Part shown: one piece after another, positions 4,298 to 41,728 of the stretch
Position numbering within the stretch: the stretch's first letter is position 1
How the letters are laid out: every line of letters begins with the position of its first letter
Assembly: GCA_963778905.1 (NCBI GenBank)
Contig: CAVZWH010000007.1
Span: forward strand, 1 to 53,052
DNA from: Candidatus Staskawiczbacteria bacterium
GTDB lineage: Bacteria > Patescibacteriota > Minisyncoccia > Minisyncoccales > Staskawiczbacteraceae
Length of the DNA: 53,052 nt
Direction of reading: 5' to 3'
Made by a program: the position numbers and the translations under genes
The notes under the pieces: generated by a model
Told to the model about the DNA's origin: nothing
What the model saw: only the letters and a program-made list of their open reading frames with translations
The model's database searches: none

Positions 4298-5011
4298 TTA
4301 TTTGTTAATTAATAATATTTTTTCCAATGCATCCGTATATTTTCCTTGGCTGTACAAATCTTCAGCATCTGTCAATATTTTCTTTTGGTTATCTGTCAAA
4401 GTTGTTTTTTGCAAATCAGCAATTTCACTCTGCACAACCATCTGAGATAAATTTTGCACATCTGTGTTTTGGCTCAAATCTGTTCCCGGCACATCAGCTA
4501 ATGTTTTTAAGCTGCTTGCTATTTCTTTTATTGTCTGCGGGTCTTGTGTTGGATTTTCTTTCAAATTTTTAGCTAATTCTGATGCGTTTGTTCTTATCTC
4601 ATCTATCGCCGAAGGAATATTATTTGTTTTTCCTTCTTTGGCAACTTGCGCCAGATCATTTATTCTGTTGCTTAAAGTTGCCACATCTTGCTTCAAACCT
4701 ATTTGTCCTGTTAAAGCTGCCTGCGACTGTTCAGATAATTTTTTCACTGGAAACAATAAATCGCCCGGCAATGTATATCTGGCAAAACCAATCAATCCAA
4801 CAATAACAAAAACAAATGCGGCAAATGAATAAGCCATTTTTTTCTGGAAAAACACAGAAGAAAAAATATCCATAACTCCAACTGACTTTGCCACAATCGG
4901 CATTGGCTTTTGTTCATTCAAAATCTGCGATTTAAGCAAAACAGCCCATTCTTTTCTGGGCTTGATTTCTTTGAGTTGTTTTATTGAATTTATGAGCTCT
5001 TTTTGGTTCAT
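4298..5011 (-). CDS. Putative membrane-anchored anti-sigma factor (DUF5667-like)
   Basis: Directly downstream of ECF sigma. Cytoplasmic N-terminus, one TM helix, then a LPGDLLFPVKKLSE motif. Start chosen at MNQKELI (5011). Confidence 0.65.
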   Translation of the reverse strand: MNQKELINSIKQLKEIKPRKEWAVLLKSQILNEQKPMPIVAKSVGVMDIFSSVFFQKKMAYSFAAFVFVIVGLIGFARYTLPGDLLFPVKKLSEQSQAALTGQIGLKQDVATLSNRINDLAQVAKEGKTNNIPSAIDEIRTNASELAKNLKENPTQDPQTIKEIASSLKTLADVPGTDLSQNTDVQNLSQMVVQSEIADLQKTTLTDNQKKILTDAEDLYSQGKYTDALEKILLINK

Positions 5012-5062
5012 TTTGTGGGTATTAGTATGATGACGCTTCATAGAGCTGTTTTATTACACTTT

Positions 5063-5569
5063 TTATGACTCTTGAATAATATTTTTTAGATCCTTCAATC
5101 CCCTGTGCAACATTACTCTTATTGTGCCTTCTGGCTTATCTAATAATTTAGCTATATTGGCAATTGGCATATCTTCTAAATAATGCCAGATTATTACGTC
5201 CTGGTGCTCTTTTTTGAGCTTTTGTATCGCTTTTTTAACAATGTTTACGTCTGCGCTTAAAATCGCCTTGTCATGGGCGTTTGTCCTATCGTCGGTTATC
5301 TCTGGACTAGCATCAATTGACACTAATTTTGACCTACCCTTTTCTCTATAATGGTCTATTACTGCATTTCTGGCTATTTGATATAAAAAAGCGCCTGGAT
5401 TTTTTATATCATTGTTTTGATTTTGAAACGCTTCCCATCCCCTTAAAAACACTTTAGATGTAATATCCTCGGCTGTTTCTTGCGAATCCACTTTCAAATA
5501 AATAAACCTGTATATTTTATCAATATATTGGTCGTAAATAGAGCTGAATTGTTCATTAATGTTCTCCAT
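5063..5569 (-). CDS. ECF-type RNA polymerase sigma-70 factor
   Basis: Region 2 (YDQYIDKIYRFIY...AEDITSKVFLRGW...FLYQIARNAVIDHYR) and region 4 (LEDMPIANIAKLLDKPEGTIRVMLHRG); 168 aa. Confidence 0.93.
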   Translation of the reverse strand: MENINEQFSSIYDQYIDKIYRFIYLKVDSQETAEDITSKVFLRGWEAFQNQNNDIKNPGAFLYQIARNAVIDHYREKGRSKLVSIDASPEITDDRTNAHDKAILSADVNIVKKAIQKLKKEHQDVIIWHYLEDMPIANIAKLLDKPEGTIRVMLHRGLKDLKNIIQES

Positions 5570-13097: not shown

Positions 13098-13125
13098 AAA
13101 AAATCGCCATCAAGGCGATTTTTTT
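13098..13125 (-). terminator. Terminator after clpB
   Basis: AAAAAATCGCC-ATCAA-GGCGATTTTTT. Confidence 0.7.
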
Positions 13126-15838
13126 ATTTTTTAGCTTTTGCTAATTTTGGCCTTTCCTGAATTCTTGGCAAAATTTTTGGCGTTTCAAAAATAATTTTTC
13201 CGTCATCTGCATCAATTAAAATTCTGCTGCCTTCTGCAATTTCATTGGTGACTATTTTAATTGACAAAGGATCCAAAATTAATCTTTGAATCACTCTTTT
13301 TAGCGGACGCGCTCCCAAATTTGGATCAAATCCTTCTTTCACCAAAAGCTCCTTTGCGCTTTGTGAAATTTCAATTTTTATTTCTTTGGCTGCCAAGCGC
13401 TTTTCAACTTTTGACAATTCCAAATCAACAATTTTTTTAATCTGTTCTTTTTGCAAATAATTAAATATCACAATTTCATCAATTCTGTTCAAAAATTCCG
13501 GGCGAAATGCGTCTCTCAACGAATCAAATATTTTTTCTCTCATTGATTCCCTTTCTGCCAATTCTTCTGTGGTGCTAAATCCAAGCGAAGACATTTTGTT
13601 AATAAAATCCGAGCCCAAATTAGAAGTCATTATAATAATTGTGTTTTTGAATGAAACTGCTCTGCCTTTTGAGTCTGTTAATCTGCCGTCTTCAAAAATT
13701 TGCAGTAAAATATTAAAAACATCCGGATGAGCTTTTTCAATTTCATCTAACAACAAAACAGAATACGGCCTGCGTCTTACTTTTTCTGTTAATTGACCGG
13801 CTTCCTCATATCCAACGTATCCTGGCGGAGAACCGATTATTTTTGAAACAGTGTGGCGCTCCATATATTCAGACATGTCCAATCTTATCATTGCTTTTTC
13901 GTCATCAAACAAAAATTCTGCCAAAGCCCTGGCTGTTTCGGTTTTTCCAACTCCTGTAGGTCCCAAAAATAGAAAAGATCCCAATGGTTTATCTTCTTCT
14001 GAAATTCCGGCTCTTGCCCTTCTTATTGCTCTTGAAATTGCTGAAATTGCTTCCTCTTGACCAACCACTCGCCTGTTCAGCGTGCCCTCCATTGTTTCTA
14101 ACTTTTTTGCTTCTTCTGTAATCAAGCGCATAACCGGAATTCCGGTCCAACGCGAAACAACTTTGGCAACTTCTTCCTCGGTCACTTCTTCTTTCATTAA
14201 TCTGTGCTCTTTTTGTATTTTTATTAATTTTTGTTCTATGGCAGCCAATTCTTTTAACAATTCCGGAATTTTTCCATATTTTATTTCAGCAACTTTTTCC
14301 AAATCAGCTTCTCTTTGGGCAATTTCTGTCTGATAAGAAAGATTATCAATTTTTTCTCTGATATCTTTTATTTTATTAATCAATTCTTTTTCAGCTCCCC
14401 ATCTTAATCTCAATGCTTTTGTTTTTTCATTCAAATCAGCCAATTCCCTGGAAATTACTTTGAGCCGTCTTTCAGATCCTTTTTCTTTTTTTAACGCCTG
14501 CTTTTCAATTTCTAATTTTGTAATTTCCTCGTTAAATTTTTCCAACTCCTGCGGGTCGGATTCGTTTTCTAATCTCAAAGCCGATGCCGCTTCGTCCATC
14601 AAGTCAACTGCTTTGTCCGGCAAAAATCGGTCAGCAATATATCTTGAAGCCAAATCAACCGCGGCCTTGATCGCCGAGTCCTTTATTTTTACTCCGTGGT
14701 GCAATTCATATTTTTCTTTGATTCCCCGTAAAATTGCGGTGGCGTCTTCGGCGTTCGGCTCCTGCACATAAATCGGCTGAAATCTTCTTTCCAAAGCAGG
14801 ATCTTTTTCAATATATTTTTGATATTCTTTCAAGGTTGTAGCTCCAATTGCCCTTAATTCTCCGCGAGACAAAGCCGGCTTTAACAAATTTGAAGCATCA
14901 ATTGCTCCCTCGGCGGCTCCCGCTCCAACCAACGTATGCAGCTCGTCAATAAACAAAATATATTTTCCAGCAGCTCTGTTCACTTCTTTTAGCAAGGCCT
15001 TAATTCTTGTTTCAAATTCTCCTCTGTATTTTGTTCCGGCAATTATGGCCCCCAAATCCAAAGAAATTATTTCTTTATCTTTCAAAAATTCCGGCACATT
15101 TCCGCGCGCAATTCTTTGCGCAAACCCTTCCACAATTGCTGTTTTTCCAACTCCGGCTTCTCCAATTAAAACCGGATTATTTTTTGTTCTGCGCGAAATT
15201 ATCTGCATTAATCTGCGTATTTCATTATCTCTGCCAATTATCGGATCAATTTTTCCTGCAGCTGCCAAGTTAGTTAAATTTCTTGTATATTTTTCTATTA
15301 CCTGATATTTTGCTTCAGGTTCTGCGTCTGTAATTCTTTGACCGCCTCTTATCTGCGACAAAATTTTCATAACTGCCTCGTAATCAAGTTTTGAATTTTT
15401 GAAACTATTTGCCTCGGACCCAAAGGGTACCCCCGCCAAAAAATTAATTTTTTCCAAAATATCTTTTGCCGTAGATTTTGTGTCCACTAAAGCCAAAAAT
15501 AAATGCTCAACTGAAATAAATTCGTCGTTCATTTTTATTGCTTCCTGCCTGGCTCTGTCTAAAACTTTTGCCATATCCTGCGTTAAATAAAACTGACCGA
15601 AAGCCTGTTGAGCAGCAATTGTCGGAATTTTCGCAATTTGCGTATCAATTTTTTTGGCTAAGGCATCTGCATCAATTCCAAGTTTTTGCAAAATTGTAAT
15701 TACAATTGAGCCTTCCTGCAAAAGCAAAGCAGACAACAAATGCAAGGCATCAATTTGCGCCTGCCCTTTTTCCTGAGCCAATTGCTGAGCCTGCATTAGC
15801 GCATCCTGAGCTTTATTTGTAAAATTATTTCCATTCAC
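13124..15838 (-). CDS. clpB: ATP-dependent chaperone ClpB
   Basis: Two AAA+ domains (GEAGVGKT/FIDELH; GPTGVGKT/LLDEIEKAH), coiled-coil M domain, Clp-N domain. The GTG start is supplied by the MITE end. Confidence 0.96.
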   Translation of the reverse strand: MNGNNFTNKAQDALMQAQQLAQEKGQAQIDALHLLSALLLQEGSIVITILQKLGIDADALAKKIDTQIAKIPTIAAQQAFGQFYLTQDMAKVLDRARQEAIKMNDEFISVEHLFLALVDTKSTAKDILEKINFLAGVPFGSEANSFKNSKLDYEAVMKILSQIRGGQRITDAEPEAKYQVIEKYTRNLTNLAAAGKIDPIIGRDNEIRRLMQIISRRTKNNPVLIGEAGVGKTAIVEGFAQRIARGNVPEFLKDKEIISLDLGAIIAGTKYRGEFETRIKALLKEVNRAAGKYILFIDELHTLVGAGAAEGAIDASNLLKPALSRGELRAIGATTLKEYQKYIEKDPALERRFQPIYVQEPNAEDATAILRGIKEKYELHHGVKIKDSAIKAAVDLASRYIADRFLPDKAVDLMDEAASALRLENESDPQELEKFNEEITKLEIEKQALKKEKGSERRLKVISRELADLNEKTKALRLRWGAEKELINKIKDIREKIDNLSYQTEIAQREADLEKVAEIKYGKIPELLKELAAIEQKLIKIQKEHRLMKEEVTEEEVAKVVSRWTGIPVMRLITEEAKKLETMEGTLNRRVVGQEEAISAISRAIRRARAGISEEDKPLGSFLFLGPTGVGKTETARALAEFLFDDEKAMIRLDMSEYMERHTVSKIIGSPPGYVGYEEAGQLTEKVRRRPYSVLLLDEIEKAHPDVFNILLQIFEDGRLTDSKGRAVSFKNTIIIMTSNLGSDFINKMSSLGFSTTEELAERESMREKIFDSLRDAFRPEFLNRIDEIVIFNYLQKEQIKKIVDLELSKVEKRLAAKEIKIEISQSAKELLVKEGFDPNLGARPLKRVIQRLILDPLSIKIVTNEIAEGSRILIDADDGKIIFETPKILPRIQERPKLAKAKK
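15416..15433 (+). repeat. 18-nt micro-hairpin repeat, in frame in clpB (GVPFGS)
   Basis: GGACCCAAAGGGTACCCC. Confidence 0.75.
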
Positions 15839-15969
15839 CCCGTTAGAAGTCTATCTTAATATAACAAAAAGTTAACTTTAGATAGACCTTGTTTACTTTA
15901 CTATTCCCCGTTATTACCGAGCAGAAAAAATTTAAATAAAATTTTTTCTGCCCAAGACTTCTAACGGGG
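15838..15969. mobile_element. MITE-like element, 132 bp, 15-bp TIR, 4-bp TSD
   Basis: CCCCGTTAGAAGTCT...AGACTTCTAACGGGG flanked by TTCA (15834-15837) and TTCA (15970-15973). Confidence 0.85.
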
Positions 15970-16013
15970 TTCATACTTTATTTATTACCATATTTATAAT
16001 ACGTTTTCAAGGC

Positions 16014-16586: not shown

Positions 16587-16615
16587 AGTATATCATAAAT
16601 GTTTTTAGATGTCAA
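16587..16615 (-). promoter_or_regulatory. Sigma70 promoter for the HTH gene
   Basis: TTGACA-N17-TATACT with TG extension. Confidence 0.75.
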
Positions 16616-16633
16616 CAATTTTATCCCAAACTA

Positions 16634-16662
16634 TTGACAATATAACTATAAAATGATACAAT
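16634..16662 (+). promoter_or_regulatory. Divergent sigma70 promoter
   Basis: TTGACA-N17-TACAAT with TG extension. Confidence 0.75.
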
Positions 16663-16676
16663 AAAAATATGAAACC

Positions 16677-16771
16677 AGCCCTTCTTTCAAATCATTAGTC
16701 GAATACCGAAAACTATCCTGGAAGATTTCAAGATAATAAACAAATTTCTTTAATGGTTTGAAAGAAGGGCT
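16677..16771 (+). other. Leader stem-loop: 21-bp stem (one G.U), 53-nt loop
   Basis: AGCCCTTCTTTCAAATCATTA (16677-16697) pairs with TAATGGTTTGAAAGAAGGGCT (16751-16771). Confidence 0.6.
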
Positions 16772-16819
16772 CTATTTTCTAGTTCTGAAACAGTGGAACC
16801 TTTTGAAAGGATTTGCGAA

Positions 16820-22176: not shown

Positions 22177-22277
22177 ATTTATCTATTATACCTTATATCT
22201 TGAAAAATTTTAATATTCTGGTAATATTATTCTGTAGTACCAACCATTCTTGATCATTGACATGGAGGAACCAGGCA

Positions 22278-22862
22278 ATGTTATTTGCACTTGAAGAAAT
22301 AATGAAAACGGAAATGTTTTGGGCGCCGGCATTAGGCGCCACAGTTTTGATTTTGATTCTGGCTATAATAGCTTTAAATCTTAAATTCAACCCGCCGACA
22401 AATCAAAAAGAAGAAAAGGTAAAGCCAAAAACGATTATCGTTTTCTGCTCTGACCCGAGGTTTCAGGCCGAATTTGCCAAGTTTGTTAGAAAAAGGCTTG
22501 GACTGGGAGATGGAGAATTTGTGCCAATCCTTACTGCTGGAGGTCCGGCTGCTTTTGCCAACACAGCCAAACGCTGCTATGACTTCAAGTTTCTGAAAGG
22601 ACAAATTGAATTCTTCTCGGAACATTTTCCGTCAATAGAAGAAATTGTTTTGGTCGGCCACCAGGACTGCGGATATTATAACGAAATCCTTGAGTTGCCT
22701 GGCCAAGAAAAGGAAGACCTGATACAAGCCAGGCGGACTCTCGGCACGTTTTGGGTCAAATCAGTTTGGCTCTACTATGCCAAGTTTTCGTCTGATGACC
22801 AGACCCAAATAATATTTGACCAAGTGCTTGCGCCCTCGGCGGCCCAAGTATCTATGCCATAA
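22278..22862 (+). CDS. Membrane-anchored beta-carbonic-anhydrase-like protein
   Basis: Zn-ligand pattern CSDPR...HQDCG; one TM. GGAGG SD 9 nt upstream of ATG 22278. Lone plus-strand, GC-richer gene. Confidence 0.6.
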   Translation: MLFALEEIMKTEMFWAPALGATVLILILAIIALNLKFNPPTNQKEEKVKPKTIIVFCSDPRFQAEFAKFVRKRLGLGDGEFVPILTAGGPAAFANTAKRCYDFKFLKGQIEFFSEHFPSIEEIVLVGHQDCGYYNEILELPGQEKEDLIQARRTLGTFWVKSVWLYYAKFSSDDQTQIIFDQVLAPSAAQVSMP

Positions 22863-27509: not shown

Positions 27510-27607
27510 CCCCGTTAGAAATTATATTGTTCGTGAAATCTGTGGAAAACTTTTAACAAAAATAATTTTTCAGCTTTTTTCCGTTTTTACTATGATTTCT
27601 AACGGGG
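27510..27607. mobile_element. MITE-like element, 98 bp, 13-bp TIR, 4-bp TSD
   Basis: CCCCGTTAGAAAT...ATTTCTAACGGGG flanked by CAAG (27506-27509) and CAAG (27608-27611). Confidence 0.85.
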
Positions 27608-39941: not shown

Positions 39942-41728
39942 CATACAAAAAATAATAAAAAGAAGTTCAGATCCAAAATTAATTGAGTCTGCTTTTGAGT
40001 TTGCCAAAGAAGCCTACAAAGATAAAAATCGCATATCCGGAGAAAATTACATTTATCATGCTACCAGGGTGGCTTTGGCTCTTGATAAAATGGGTTTAGA
40101 CCCGACAACAATTGCTTTTGGAATATTGCACGACGTGTTGGATGACCTGCCCAGCTCTGCAAAAAATGTTGAAGCAAAAGAGATTGAAAAAAAATTCGAC
40201 AAAGAAACAGCCAAGCTGGTAGAAAAAATTTCAGAACTCGGCAAAGTCCGCTATTCTTTGTCAATCAATATAAAAGATAAAAAAACACTTACAAGAGAAA
40301 AAATAGAAAATTTGAGAAGAATGTTTTTAGCTATAGCCGGAGATTTAAGGGTGGTTTTAGTAGAACTTATTTCAAGATTAGACACCTTAAATTTTTTGCG
40401 AGATTTGCCGGAAGACCAGCGAAAGTTATATGCTCTTGAAACTTTACAGGTTTTTGTTCCTGTTGCCAACAGATTGGGTTTAAGTGAAATCAGAAGAAGT
40501 CTTGAAGATATAGCTTTTTCCTATTTATTCCCGGAAAAATTTAAGCAGCTGAAAGAAAACATCAAAGAACAATACGAAGAAAGAGAAAAATATCTCAAAA
40601 AATTTATTCCGCACTTGAGAAAAATTTTCAAAAAAGAAAGGGTAAAAGTTTTGGGTATAAATTACAGGGCAAAATCATATTGGAGCACCTATCAAAAATT
40701 AGTTAAACACAATATGGATTTTGAAAAAATCCACGATTTGCTGGCTTTAAGAATAATTGTTGCTGACATTGAAAGCTGTTATAAAGTTTTGGGCATAATT
40801 CACAAACATTTTAAGCCCATTTCCGAGGAAATCAACGATTACATTGCCAAGCCAAAATCCAATGGATACAGATCGTTGCACACTACAATTTTTCCCGAAG
40901 AAGGAAAAATAACTGAAATTCAAATAAGAACCGATGAAATGAACAAAGAGGCCGAATACGGCATTTGCGCGCACTGGTCATACAAAGAAAAAATAGATCT
41001 TAAAAAAGAAAGCAAAAACTTTGAATGGATGAACACCGTTAGAAGTCAGGGGGACTTGGAAAAAATACAAAAAAAGCAAACTTCTAACGGGGTAAAAGAT
41101 GTGCCGGAATTTTGGAAAACTTTCAAAATTGACTTTTTTACAAACCAAATTTTTACTTTTACCCCAAAAGGAGATGTTATTGTTTTACCAAAAGGTTCAA
41201 GCGCAGTTGATTTTGCTTATGCTGTGCACTCAGATATCGGGAATCACTGCGAGTTCGGCAAAAATCGGCGGCAAAATAGTCCCGCTTGATCATGTTTTAG
41301 AAAATGGAAATGTGGTGGAAGTCGCTGTAAATAAAAATAAAAATCCAAGCAAAGATTGGTTAAGATTTGTCAAAACATCTTTAGCAAAATCACATATAAA
41401 AAAACTCACCGCACAAAACGAAACTGGATTTAAGTTTCCTATTCCCGGTTTTATAAAAAGGAAATTTGCTGAAATTTCCGAGGCCGCAAAAAAGAAAAAG
41501 GAAGAAAAAAATTTGATTAAAAAAGGTGGAATGAGGCATATTTATTTGGCGGGCCAAAAAGGAATGCTAATTCACATCGCAAAATGTTGCAATCCCCAGC
41601 CCGGAGACAAAGTTTCAGCTTATCTTTCCCAACACAGAGCCGCTGTTTTGCACAGAACCTCGTGCAGTAATTTCAAAAAAATTGCAGAAAAATTCCCGGA
41701 AAAAATAATCGATGCTTCGTGGGAGTAG
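39931..41728 (+). CDS. rel: RelA/SpoT-family (p)ppGpp synthetase/hydrolase, split by a +1 frameshift at about 41254
   Basis: HD motif (LHDVLDD), synthetase (DLLALRII, PKSNGYRSLHTT, EIQIRT), TGS (VDFAYAVHSDIGNHC). Removing one T from GAG-T-TCG joins SAKIGGKIVPLDHVLENG of the 41099-41728 ORF. Confidence 0.88.
41034..41092. mobile_element. MITE-like element, 59 bp, in frame inside rel
   Basis: CACCGTTAGAAGT...ACTTCTAACGGGG flanked by TGAA / TAAA; element plus one TSD = 63 bp = 21 codons. Confidence 0.8.

Follow-up and report, generated by a model that had tools for sequence, protein, structure and literature searches.

A 132-bp inverted-repeat element in the clpB start codon of a Candidatus Staskawiczbacteria genome, and related elements at other gene starts

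The clpB start region and its insertion

The stretch of DNA analyzed here (the window) comprises 53,052 nt, i.e., positions 1 to 53,052 of the forward strand of contig CAVZWH010000007.1 in GenBank assembly GCA_963778905.1. The host is a Candidatus Staskawiczbacteria bacterium (Patescibacteriota; Minisyncoccia; Minisyncoccales; Staskawiczbacteraceae), an ultra-small organism resembling those of the candidate phyla radiation (CPR). Its genome (741 kb, 31 contigs, 36% G+C) is designated G000; G007, G010, G013, G014, G016, G018, G019, G021, and G023 are related genomes, and L009, L012, L016, L018, and L080 are loci extracted from relatives. On the minus strand of the window lies the chaperone gene clpB (Hsp104/ClpB disaggregase), whose product displays the full domain architecture of ClpB in Pfam: Clp_N (PF02861), AAA (PF00004), AAA_lid_9 (PF17871), AAA_2 (PF07724; E = 3e-70), and ClpB_D2-small (PF10431). 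The start codon of this gene is interrupted by a small element that resembles a MITE (miniature inverted-repeat transposable element). The features of the locus and of related loci are compiled in Table 1.

Read on the minus strand, the start region of clpB has the order ...ataaagtA / TGAA / CCCCGTTAGAAGTC...(132 bp)...GACTTCTAACGGGG / TGAA / TGGAAATAATTTTACAAATAAAGC, the bases directly after the downstream TGAA being TGGAAATAATTTT. The two terminal inverted repeats (TIRs) agree in 14 of 14 bp and the two flanking direct repeats, i.e., the target site duplication (TSD), in 4 of 4; within the window the TIR motif occurs six times, with 0.12 occurrences expected. Deletion of the element together with one TGAA yields ATG AAT GGA AAT AAT TTT. 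As the element ends in G, its downstream junction with TGAA reads GTG AAT, and consequently the frame of ClpB is unchanged, with fMet-NGNNF at its beginning as before. The displaced ATG opens an upstream open reading frame (uORF), an accidental frame and the only one in the element, and the junction of its end with clpB reads TAAcgggGTG. That a short ORF begins at the displaced ATG had been foreseen in the original prediction, which was made from the letters of the window; the 24-codon peptide given there was mistranslated after ...NFF, the real product being MNPVRSLGQKKFYLNFFCSVITGNSKVNKVYLKLTFCYIKIDF, from an ORF of 43 codons.

The element region is predicted to fold at -53.1 kcal/mol (z = -8.05 versus shuffled sequences). 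In the minimum free energy (MFE) fold the terminal repeats pair with one another, and the G of the GTG and the 13 preceding nucleotides are base paired; the mean probability of being unpaired, P(unpaired), around the start is 0.33 with the element versus 0.67 for the joined empty site. Of two alternative folds, A and B, with -54.0 and -50.0 kcal/mol, respectively, fold B leaves the GTG in a loop. It involves an internal pseudo-end, which had been described as a degenerate nested end at 15906 and is real: it reads CCCCGTTATTA from 15906 on the plus strand and TAACGGGG from 15913 to 15906 on the minus strand. An interior hairpin, likewise reported before, is present as well, with a stem of about 17 bp instead of the 12 bp stated, and it is accompanied by a second one. 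An Rfam search returned no family at the gathering score. Weak sub-threshold Rfam hairpin matches (miRNA-like, WsnRNA46) at window positions 16658-16789 suggest another palindrome about 700 nt upstream of clpB.

Table 1. Features at the clpB locus, family copies in the window, and related loci (positions without prefix refer to the window)
Feature	Position or genome	Strand	Basis
clpB, 904 codons, intact	13124..15838	-	ORF; Pfam domains; genus-conserved N terminus (M/V)NGNNFTNKAQDALMQ
Mobile element, non-coding, MITE-like, 132 bp, in clpB start codon	15838..15969	-	TIRs, TSD, family copies, empty site in G019, filled junctions
Upstream TIR CCCCGTTAGAAGTC, 5' end of element on clpB strand	15956..15969	-	Sequence
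Downstream TIR GACTTCTAACGGGG; holds uORF stop TAA (15845-15843); last G (15838) is first base of GTG	15838..15851	-	Sequence
Upstream TSD copy TGAA; with A15974 forms displaced original ATG (15974-15972)	15970..15973	-	Sequence; empty site ATGAATGG in relatives
Downstream TSD copy TGAA	15834..15837	-	Sequence
Regenerated start GTG: G of element plus TG of duplication	15836..15838	-	Sequence
uORF, 43 codons, opened by displaced ATG; spans whole element; stop TAA 4 nt before GTG	15843..15974	-	
Internal pseudo-end TAACGGGG; can pair with upstream TIR (fold B), GTG then unpaired	15906..15913	-	Also in related G007 copy
Interior hairpin 1, ~17 bp, A/T-rich	15918..15954	-	Fold
Interior hairpin 2	15849..15887	-	Fold
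Candidate extended -10-like motif TGtTATATT, 19 nt before GTG	15858..15866	-	Read from sequence, inferred
Candidate host promoter TTGAAA-17 nt-TAATAA; -10 ends 7 nt before displaced ATG (leaderless-like spacing)	15982..16010	-	Read from sequence; block 89% identical in G014, -10 there TAATAT
Family copy, 98 bp, TSD CAAG, intergenic; interior unrelated to clpB copy	27510..27607		
Family copy, 59 bp + 4 = 63 bp, in frame inside 454-codon ORF	41034..41092	+	
Start-split gene, ThyA-like, MKQYLDLLKKIMEEGTDR	G016		
Start-split gene, PolX-like	G016		
Start-split gene, ribosomal L24-like (rplX), (V)KVKKGDSILITAGKDKG	G013		
Start-split gene, UppS-like (uppS), ...FPDGNRRWAKQ	G013		
Start-split gene, Pgk-like, (V)KTLKDFNVAGKRILIRCDF	G016		
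Start-split gene, epimerase, (V)KCLITGGAGFIASHLV	G010		
Start-split gene, L35-like (rpmI), (V)NKTKKALVKRFKITKNGKI; 89-bp copy, 9 nt after stop of upstream gene	G000 C13:9562-9650		
Start-split genes, several signal-peptide proteins			
Coding copy, 282 bp; 85-aa GIY-YIG product encoded at C30:18748-19005	G000 C30:18743-19024		
Coding copy, 281 bp, at pgk start	G016 C8		
Coding copy, 281 bp	G023 C3		
Coding copy, 274 bp	G016 C2		

The uninterrupted site was found in relatives, by a DNA search with the window that covered 40 of them and by extraction of the clpB start from 19 members of the genus. Similarity to the window sets in exactly at 15837, the T of the GTG, in about 20 members of the genus. 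G019, the closest relative with 86% identity in clpB, has the start region aaaaaaacaataaaATGAATGGAAATAATTTTACAAATAAAGC (also written ATGAATGGAAATAATTTT and aaaATGAATGGAAATAATTTTACAAATAAA), which is exactly the predicted empty site; it contains the very sequence that, according to the original prediction, removal of the element and one TGAA would restore, and thereby supplies the empty allele that had been proposed as a check. ATG stands at this position in 16 of the 19 extracted relatives and one codon upstream in another; two rows are offset by an extra codon, and a GTG start occurs in two relatives. The N terminus (M/V)NG(N/A)NFTNKAQDALMQ is conserved across them. The contrary observation, i.e., relatives with the same upstream sequence and no empty site, was looked for and not made. 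The DNA to the left of the insertion is too diverged from that of G019 for a clean alignment, one promoter block being 89% identical in G014, and what supports the empty site is consequently the coding flank together with the ATG and the logic of the TSD. A block at window positions 16587-16670 shows 75% identity to DNA upstream of clpB in G019.

The filled junctions were recovered in assembler contigs, of shallow depth, from a soil metagenome run (X1) and a lake-water metagenome run (X3). The X1 contigs cover both junctions (15838 and 15969) and the X3 contigs the gene-proximal one (15838), all at 100% identity with 0 differences; since these public metagenomes are unrelated, the allele is neither a chimera nor a singleton. 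A high-identity empty allele was absent from the X1 and X3 contigs, which are too shallow to speak on rare excision. Taken together, TIRs, TSD, many copies, and empty sites confirm the 132-bp stretch as a bona fide mobile insertion, and its evolutionary reading as an insertion into the start codon with rebuilding of a GTG is secure. The junction sequence and the ORF of 904 amino acids bear out that the insertion split the ATG of clpB, supplied a replacement GTG, and left ClpB intact.

Further repeats were observed near clpB in relatives. At L016:1410-1502 (G013) and in L018 (G016), clpB starts with GTG after a different, GC-rich repeat of about 93 nt with TGAA...TGAA flanks; the clpB start codon has been struck by a second repeat family. 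G013 contains the first ~22 nt of that repeat, CACCCTTCGGCAAGCTCAGGGC, in at least 13 places; they are found in G016 and G010 as well, and not in G000 or G023. L009:2040-2170 (G018) contains a 21-nt duplicate of the clpB 5' end (ATGAACGGAGCAAATTTTACA) about 90 nt upstream of the true start codon. An inverted repeat resembling CIRCE (controlling inverted repeat of chaperone expression), CACTCttgacttgaGAGTG / GCACTCtcgggttgaGAGTGC, is found in the clpB promoter region at L012:1420-1445, L009:2195-2225, L016:1325-1350, and L018:2175-2200; none was seen upstream of clpB in the window.

A dispersed family and its insertions at start codons

The clpB element belongs to a family with the ends CCCCGTTAGAA...TTCTAACGGGG. 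About 15 copies of 34 to 282 bp are present in G000, nearly all with perfect 4-bp duplications, and in a survey of 26 genus genomes the end motif was present in 18, with 0 to about 22 copies per genome; G019 holds a single solo end only. Another 55 copies were fetched from the genus. Among 64 copies with a perfect 4-bp TSD, TAAA (27), TGAA (16), and TCAA (13) predominate, and 56 conform to TNAA. The copies are alike in their ends only, their interiors being unrelated. The clpB element itself has the properties by which MITEs are recognized, namely, TIRs, a TSD of fixed length, small size, no transposase gene, dispersed copies, and an empty site.

Several copies in G000 lie within genes. Three are located in frame inside ORFs, to which they add, with the duplication, 81 (77 + 4), 63 (59 + 4), and 69 (65 + 4) bp; the second of these, situated in the window, has one mismatch in the TIRs and one in the duplication (TGAA/TAAA) and thus represents an older insertion. 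In one case the TAG of the copy's repeat terminates a gene, a further copy is situated on a TAA stop, and others are intergenic. A 34-bp copy (C17:12801-12834) is positioned within the 5' acceptor strand of tRNA-Tyr, with the order GGGCGTG / element...GGGG / CGTGTGGCTGAGC. Here, the terminal GGG of the element and the duplicated CGTG rebuild GGGCGTG, and ARAGORN calls the tRNA with or without the element. A 40-bp copy occupies the identical tRNA-Tyr site in G016 (L080, C10:94496-94535). Two 130-bp copies in G000 (C14:48543-48672 and 49247-49376), 574 bp apart, share a common right flank (TAAAccttttga), and each overlaps the 5' end of a minus-strand ORF.

To what extent start codons are split was assessed by searching the genus for an element end followed by TGAA and aligning the loci. 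At most of them the upstream flank ends with ATGAA, and the downstream flank, beginning with TGAA, opens a recognizable protein N terminus. An ATG precedes 14 of the 16 TGAA-flanked copies, 11 of which open convincing genes; the splitting of a start codon with regeneration of a GTG is thus found in at least 11 to 14 genes besides clpB. All uORFs at split starts begin with MNPVR and therefore span the upstream repeat. In a null model based on a crude gene map of G000, with 179 ATGAA starts and 853 intergenic TGAA/TTCA sites that are all hit and tolerated equally, start codons would account for 17% of the insertions; the observed excess corresponds to p = 8e-6 for 11/16 and to p = 2e-9 for 14/16. 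The duplication is preceded by A in 14 of the 16 TGAA copies versus by G in 27 of 40 TAAA or TCAA copies (Fisher p of about 1e-5), a bias that may reflect either targeting of starts or selection among insertions. Several TAAA copies are located 2 nt after TATAAT-like boxes, a spacing unlike that of the ATG cases; a single rule, i.e., insertion right after the transcription start, was considered for both. In G021 and G023, orthologous genes carry a shared 79-bp copy in the same start codon; its interior has diverged, with 63 of 79 positions identical. The rebuilt GTG start thus outlived a species split. Splitting of start codons is therefore a recurrent habit of the family, of which clpB is one clean and recent example, and the behavior is apparently undescribed.

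Four long copies are each taken up by a single ORF of 85 to 96 codons, whose stop in three cases is the TAA of the terminal repeat. All four ORFs match the Pfam family GIY-YIG (PF01541; E values of 4e-15 to 6e-14), the domain covering residues 1 to 68, and the nearest solved structures are the UPF0213 proteins BH0048 and EF2693. Two coding copies are inserted at ATGAA/.../TGAA starts, one of these at pgk. In one respect, the clpB element departs from a classical MITE: the enzyme encoded by its coding relatives is a GIY-YIG nuclease instead of a known transposase of the DDE, HUH, serine, or tyrosine type. End pairs more than about 410 bp apart were not seen in the 26 genus genomes, so that no classical transposase partner turned up by this route, which did not include a search of the genus for DDE transposase genes. 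Two further small GIY-YIG ORFs of G000 stand alone in units of 291 to 292 bp with different terminal repeats (C30:~22250-22540 and C29:~4930-5220); these repeats are CCCATCACTAAC..., with a TTTA duplication, and ATCGGGTTAAATAA.... In the C29 unit, a terminal A and TGAA give ATG AAT for a frame downstream. The tail of the clpB uORF, which ends with YLKLTFCYIKIDF before its stop, was also considered as a relic of the GIY-YIG C terminus (KYLKNRLKFFFAKSF before the stop); this idea was dropped, as local alignment of 47 copies gave no orientation signal.

Expression of clpB and mobility of the elements

The best explanation of the locus, which we consider highly probable, is that a gene-less member of the family inserted at A/TGAA of clpB and that a GTG was rebuilt, with expression of the gene presumably ensured by restart after the uORF or by an alternative fold. 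How clpB is translated now is something we infer, and the earlier notion of a rewired translation is reasonable. Among about 670 long ORFs of G000, there is no enrichment of Shine-Dalgarno (SD) sequences upstream, and -10-like hexamers show a peak starting at -12, which suggests leaderless first cistrons; the 3' end of the 16S rRNA, sought for its anti-SD sequence, was not found in the G000 assembly. Given a candidate -10 box 7 nt before the old ATG and no SD signal, ribosomes would still load at this codon, which is likely to be at or near the 5' end of the mRNA and to recruit ribosomes as before.

Three routes, which are not mutually exclusive, may lead from there to ClpB. In route a, ribosomes loaded at the old ATG would translate the 43-codon uORF across the element, melt the TIR stem in doing so, terminate at the TAA of the downstream repeat, and resume at the GTG, 4 nt further on. 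In route b, the upstream repeat would pair with the pseudo-end TAACGGGG, the partner that is transcribed first, and thereby free the GTG. In route c, the extended -10-like motif TGtTATATT would drive a transcript with a short, unstructured leader. We would rank routes a and b above route c and a crippled gene last.

Taken by itself, route c amounts to an outward promoter borne by the element, as in Correia elements: the mRNA would start about 12 nt before the GTG and lack the upstream TIR and the stem, and the uORF would play no part. At the corresponding place, a related copy in G007 reads TGtTATATA, a transcript starting from the motif leaves the GTG region accessible (P(unpaired) of 0.56), and promoters in MITEs are well documented (PMC10969869). 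However, a consensus scan did not list TGtTATATT, the count of promoter-like sites equals the chance expectation, a -35 element is lacking, and most other start-splitting copies, with their unrelated interiors, do not have the motif. We therefore regard this explanation as possible but doubtful.

If the GTG were hardly used because it is buried in the TIR stem, clpB would be crippled, i.e., expressed at a low level, started at the in-frame ATG of codon 15 (Met15), or on its way to becoming a pseudogene. This is compatible with the MFE fold, in which the G of the GTG is paired, as are the preceding 13 nt, with the halved accessibility of the start compared with the empty site, and with the youth of the insertion, whose perfect TIRs and TSD imply little time for purifying selection. 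Yet the 904-codon frame is intact with all ClpB domains, the same allele occurs in two different metagenomes, similar insertions lie on the normally indispensable genes rplX, rpmI, uppS, and pgk, one such insertion was retained across a species split, and a protein begun at Met15 would lack the N domain's first conserved helix; a crippled clpB thus appears improbable. That the hairpin is an ancestral structured leader lost by the relatives, e.g., an RNA thermometer, might be imagined for a heat-shock gene with a CIRCE-like repeat upstream in relatives and a strong hairpin occluding its start, but it is in our view refuted, and next to impossible, given the 4-bp direct repeat around perfect TIRs, the same ends with other 4-bp repeats around unrelated interiors at about 15 other G000 loci and in 17 other genus genomes, the plain ATG of relatives with similarity beginning exactly at the junction, and no Rfam family above threshold.

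Several observations weigh against the preferred explanation, i.e., insertion of a gene-less family member with expression by uORF restart or refolding. The host -10 sequence TAATAA is without the usual final T, and the leaderless start is a reading of the sequence. Of 15 start-split cases, 12 have a uORF of 6 to 24 codons that ends far from the GTG, and the uORF closes beside the start only in clpB, in a 132-bp G010 copy, and in one GTGA overlap; route a is consequently not general for the family, and a coupling of uORF and GTG as a family-wide design was rejected. In the early-stopping copies, translation of the MNPVR start of the uORF would at least unzip the stem. The perfect TIRs and TSD make the insertion look recent, and the intact clpB frame accordingly counts as weak evidence of good expression; no RNA run containing the clpB stretch and no proteome data were found. 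As to the origin of the element, local alignment detected no similarity between MITE interiors and the GIY-YIG coding copies, the link between the two is thin, resting on shared ends of 11 to 14 nt and the target pattern, and the GIY-YIG protein is no more than a candidate mover of the elements.

With these reservations, the coding copies may represent an undescribed class of transposon, a proposal to which we would give somewhat less than an even chance. Such an element of about 281 bp would encode as its sole protein a GIY-YIG nuclease of about 85 amino acids and would be specialized for insertion at the very beginning of genes, in many cases at leaderless ATGAA starts. The nuclease would be expressed from the promoter and start of the host gene, and translation would be handed back via the stop in the terminal repeat followed by the rebuilt start. 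The clpB copy would then be a stripped derivative that keeps the hand-back design (TAA, 4 nt, GTG), and the rebuilding of GGG in tRNA-Tyr would be explained as well. TIRs combined with a TSD of fixed length are a hallmark of DDE transposition, and the MITEs, whose interiors are unrelated to the GIY-YIG copies, might alternatively derive from an ordinary insertion sequence (IS) and be moved in trans by a classical DDE transposase, e.g., of a family with 4-bp TSDs, the GIY-YIG copies being passengers. This is unlikely, as a survey of element ends, not of DDE transposase genes, showed no end pairs more than 450 bp apart in the 26 genomes, the sole coding content between these ends is a GIY-YIG ORF occupying the whole element and terminating in the TIR, and G000 has two more GIY-YIG units of 291 to 292 bp with other TIRs, one of them with a 4-bp TSD.

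The family shows how mobile DNA inside essential signals is tolerated in a streamlined genome of 0.74 Mb: since the terminal bases of the element and the duplicated target restore a start codon or a tRNA acceptor stem, insertions that would otherwise be lethal are neutral enough to persist across species. The affected genes provide natural test cases for initiation in bacteria without SD signals, as genes such as rplX, pgk, and uppS apparently continue to be read from a start codon located at the base of a 14-bp stem. For annotation, gene callers will misplace such starts or call spurious small ORFs (MNPVR...). If the GIY-YIG protein is indeed the mobility enzyme, the elements would form a new mechanistic class of transposons and be among the smallest autonomous ones.

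Comparison with known systems

Translational coupling by termination-reinitiation, and reinitiation by 70S ribosomes on leaderless or SD-less messages, offers a precedent for route a. The arrangement at clpB is similar in that an upstream stop lies a few nucleotides before the next start (TAAcgggGTG), in a genome that lacks SD signals and uses ATGA overlaps. It differs in that the upstream frame, with which coupling is presumed, is an accidental 43-codon ORF of transposon sequence.

Bacterial MITEs such as the Correia/NEMIS elements of Neisseria have been reviewed (PMC10969869, PMC3184786). Like these, the elements described here are small, non-coding, bounded by TIRs, flanked by TSDs, present in many copies, and able to form long hairpins; a further likeness may be seen in the fact that Correia/NEMIS elements are cotranscribed with neighboring genes and can carry promoters. 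In contrast, the TSD of Correia elements is TA, and they have no known GIY-YIG source, whereas the present family has a 4-bp TSD (TNAA), the TIR CCCCGTTAGAAGTC, and coding relatives with GIY-YIG ORFs; moreover, a large share of its copies lies exactly on start codons, which are rebuilt. Neither "start codon" nor "initiation codon" occurs in the 2024 review of MITEs (PMC10969869).

Rickettsia palindromic elements (RPEs; Ogata et al. 2000; reviewed in PMC10969869) are likewise palindromic mobile elements tolerated inside genes, as are the three in-frame copies of G000. The two are unrelated in sequence, and RPEs are without a reported splitting and rebuilding of start codons and without a known coding parent. 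The Neisseria REP2 repeats and similar repeats of Borrelia are dispersed, lie immediately upstream of genes, and supply their start codon (PMC3184786); unlike REP2, the present element contributes only one base of the start codon, the rest being duplicated host sequence. In the literature, of which our coverage was incomplete, no description of MITEs that rebuild start codons or of GIY-YIG elements with TIRs and TSDs was found, which is absence of evidence.

Among published systems, the Ssn family comes closest (Chenal et al., Nat Commun 2025, PMC11893778): its members are single-domain GIY-YIG nucleases acting on single-stranded DNA, and NTS/SRM hairpin repeats lie on either side of their genes. 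Both systems feature a single-domain GIY-YIG protein, of about 90 to 100 amino acids in Ssn and 85 to 96 here, encoded between inverted hairpin repeats of which further copies are scattered over the genome, and Chenal et al. remark on the IS-like look of this repeat-gene-repeat layout (PMC11893778). In contrast to the present family, Ssn as published comes with no report of TSDs, empty sites, insertion into start codons, or CPR members; that paper contains none of the terms "Patescibacteria," "CPR," and "start codon" (PMC11893778). The Ssn clade corresponds to cd10448; the best relatives of the CPR proteins among solved structures are UPF0213 proteins.

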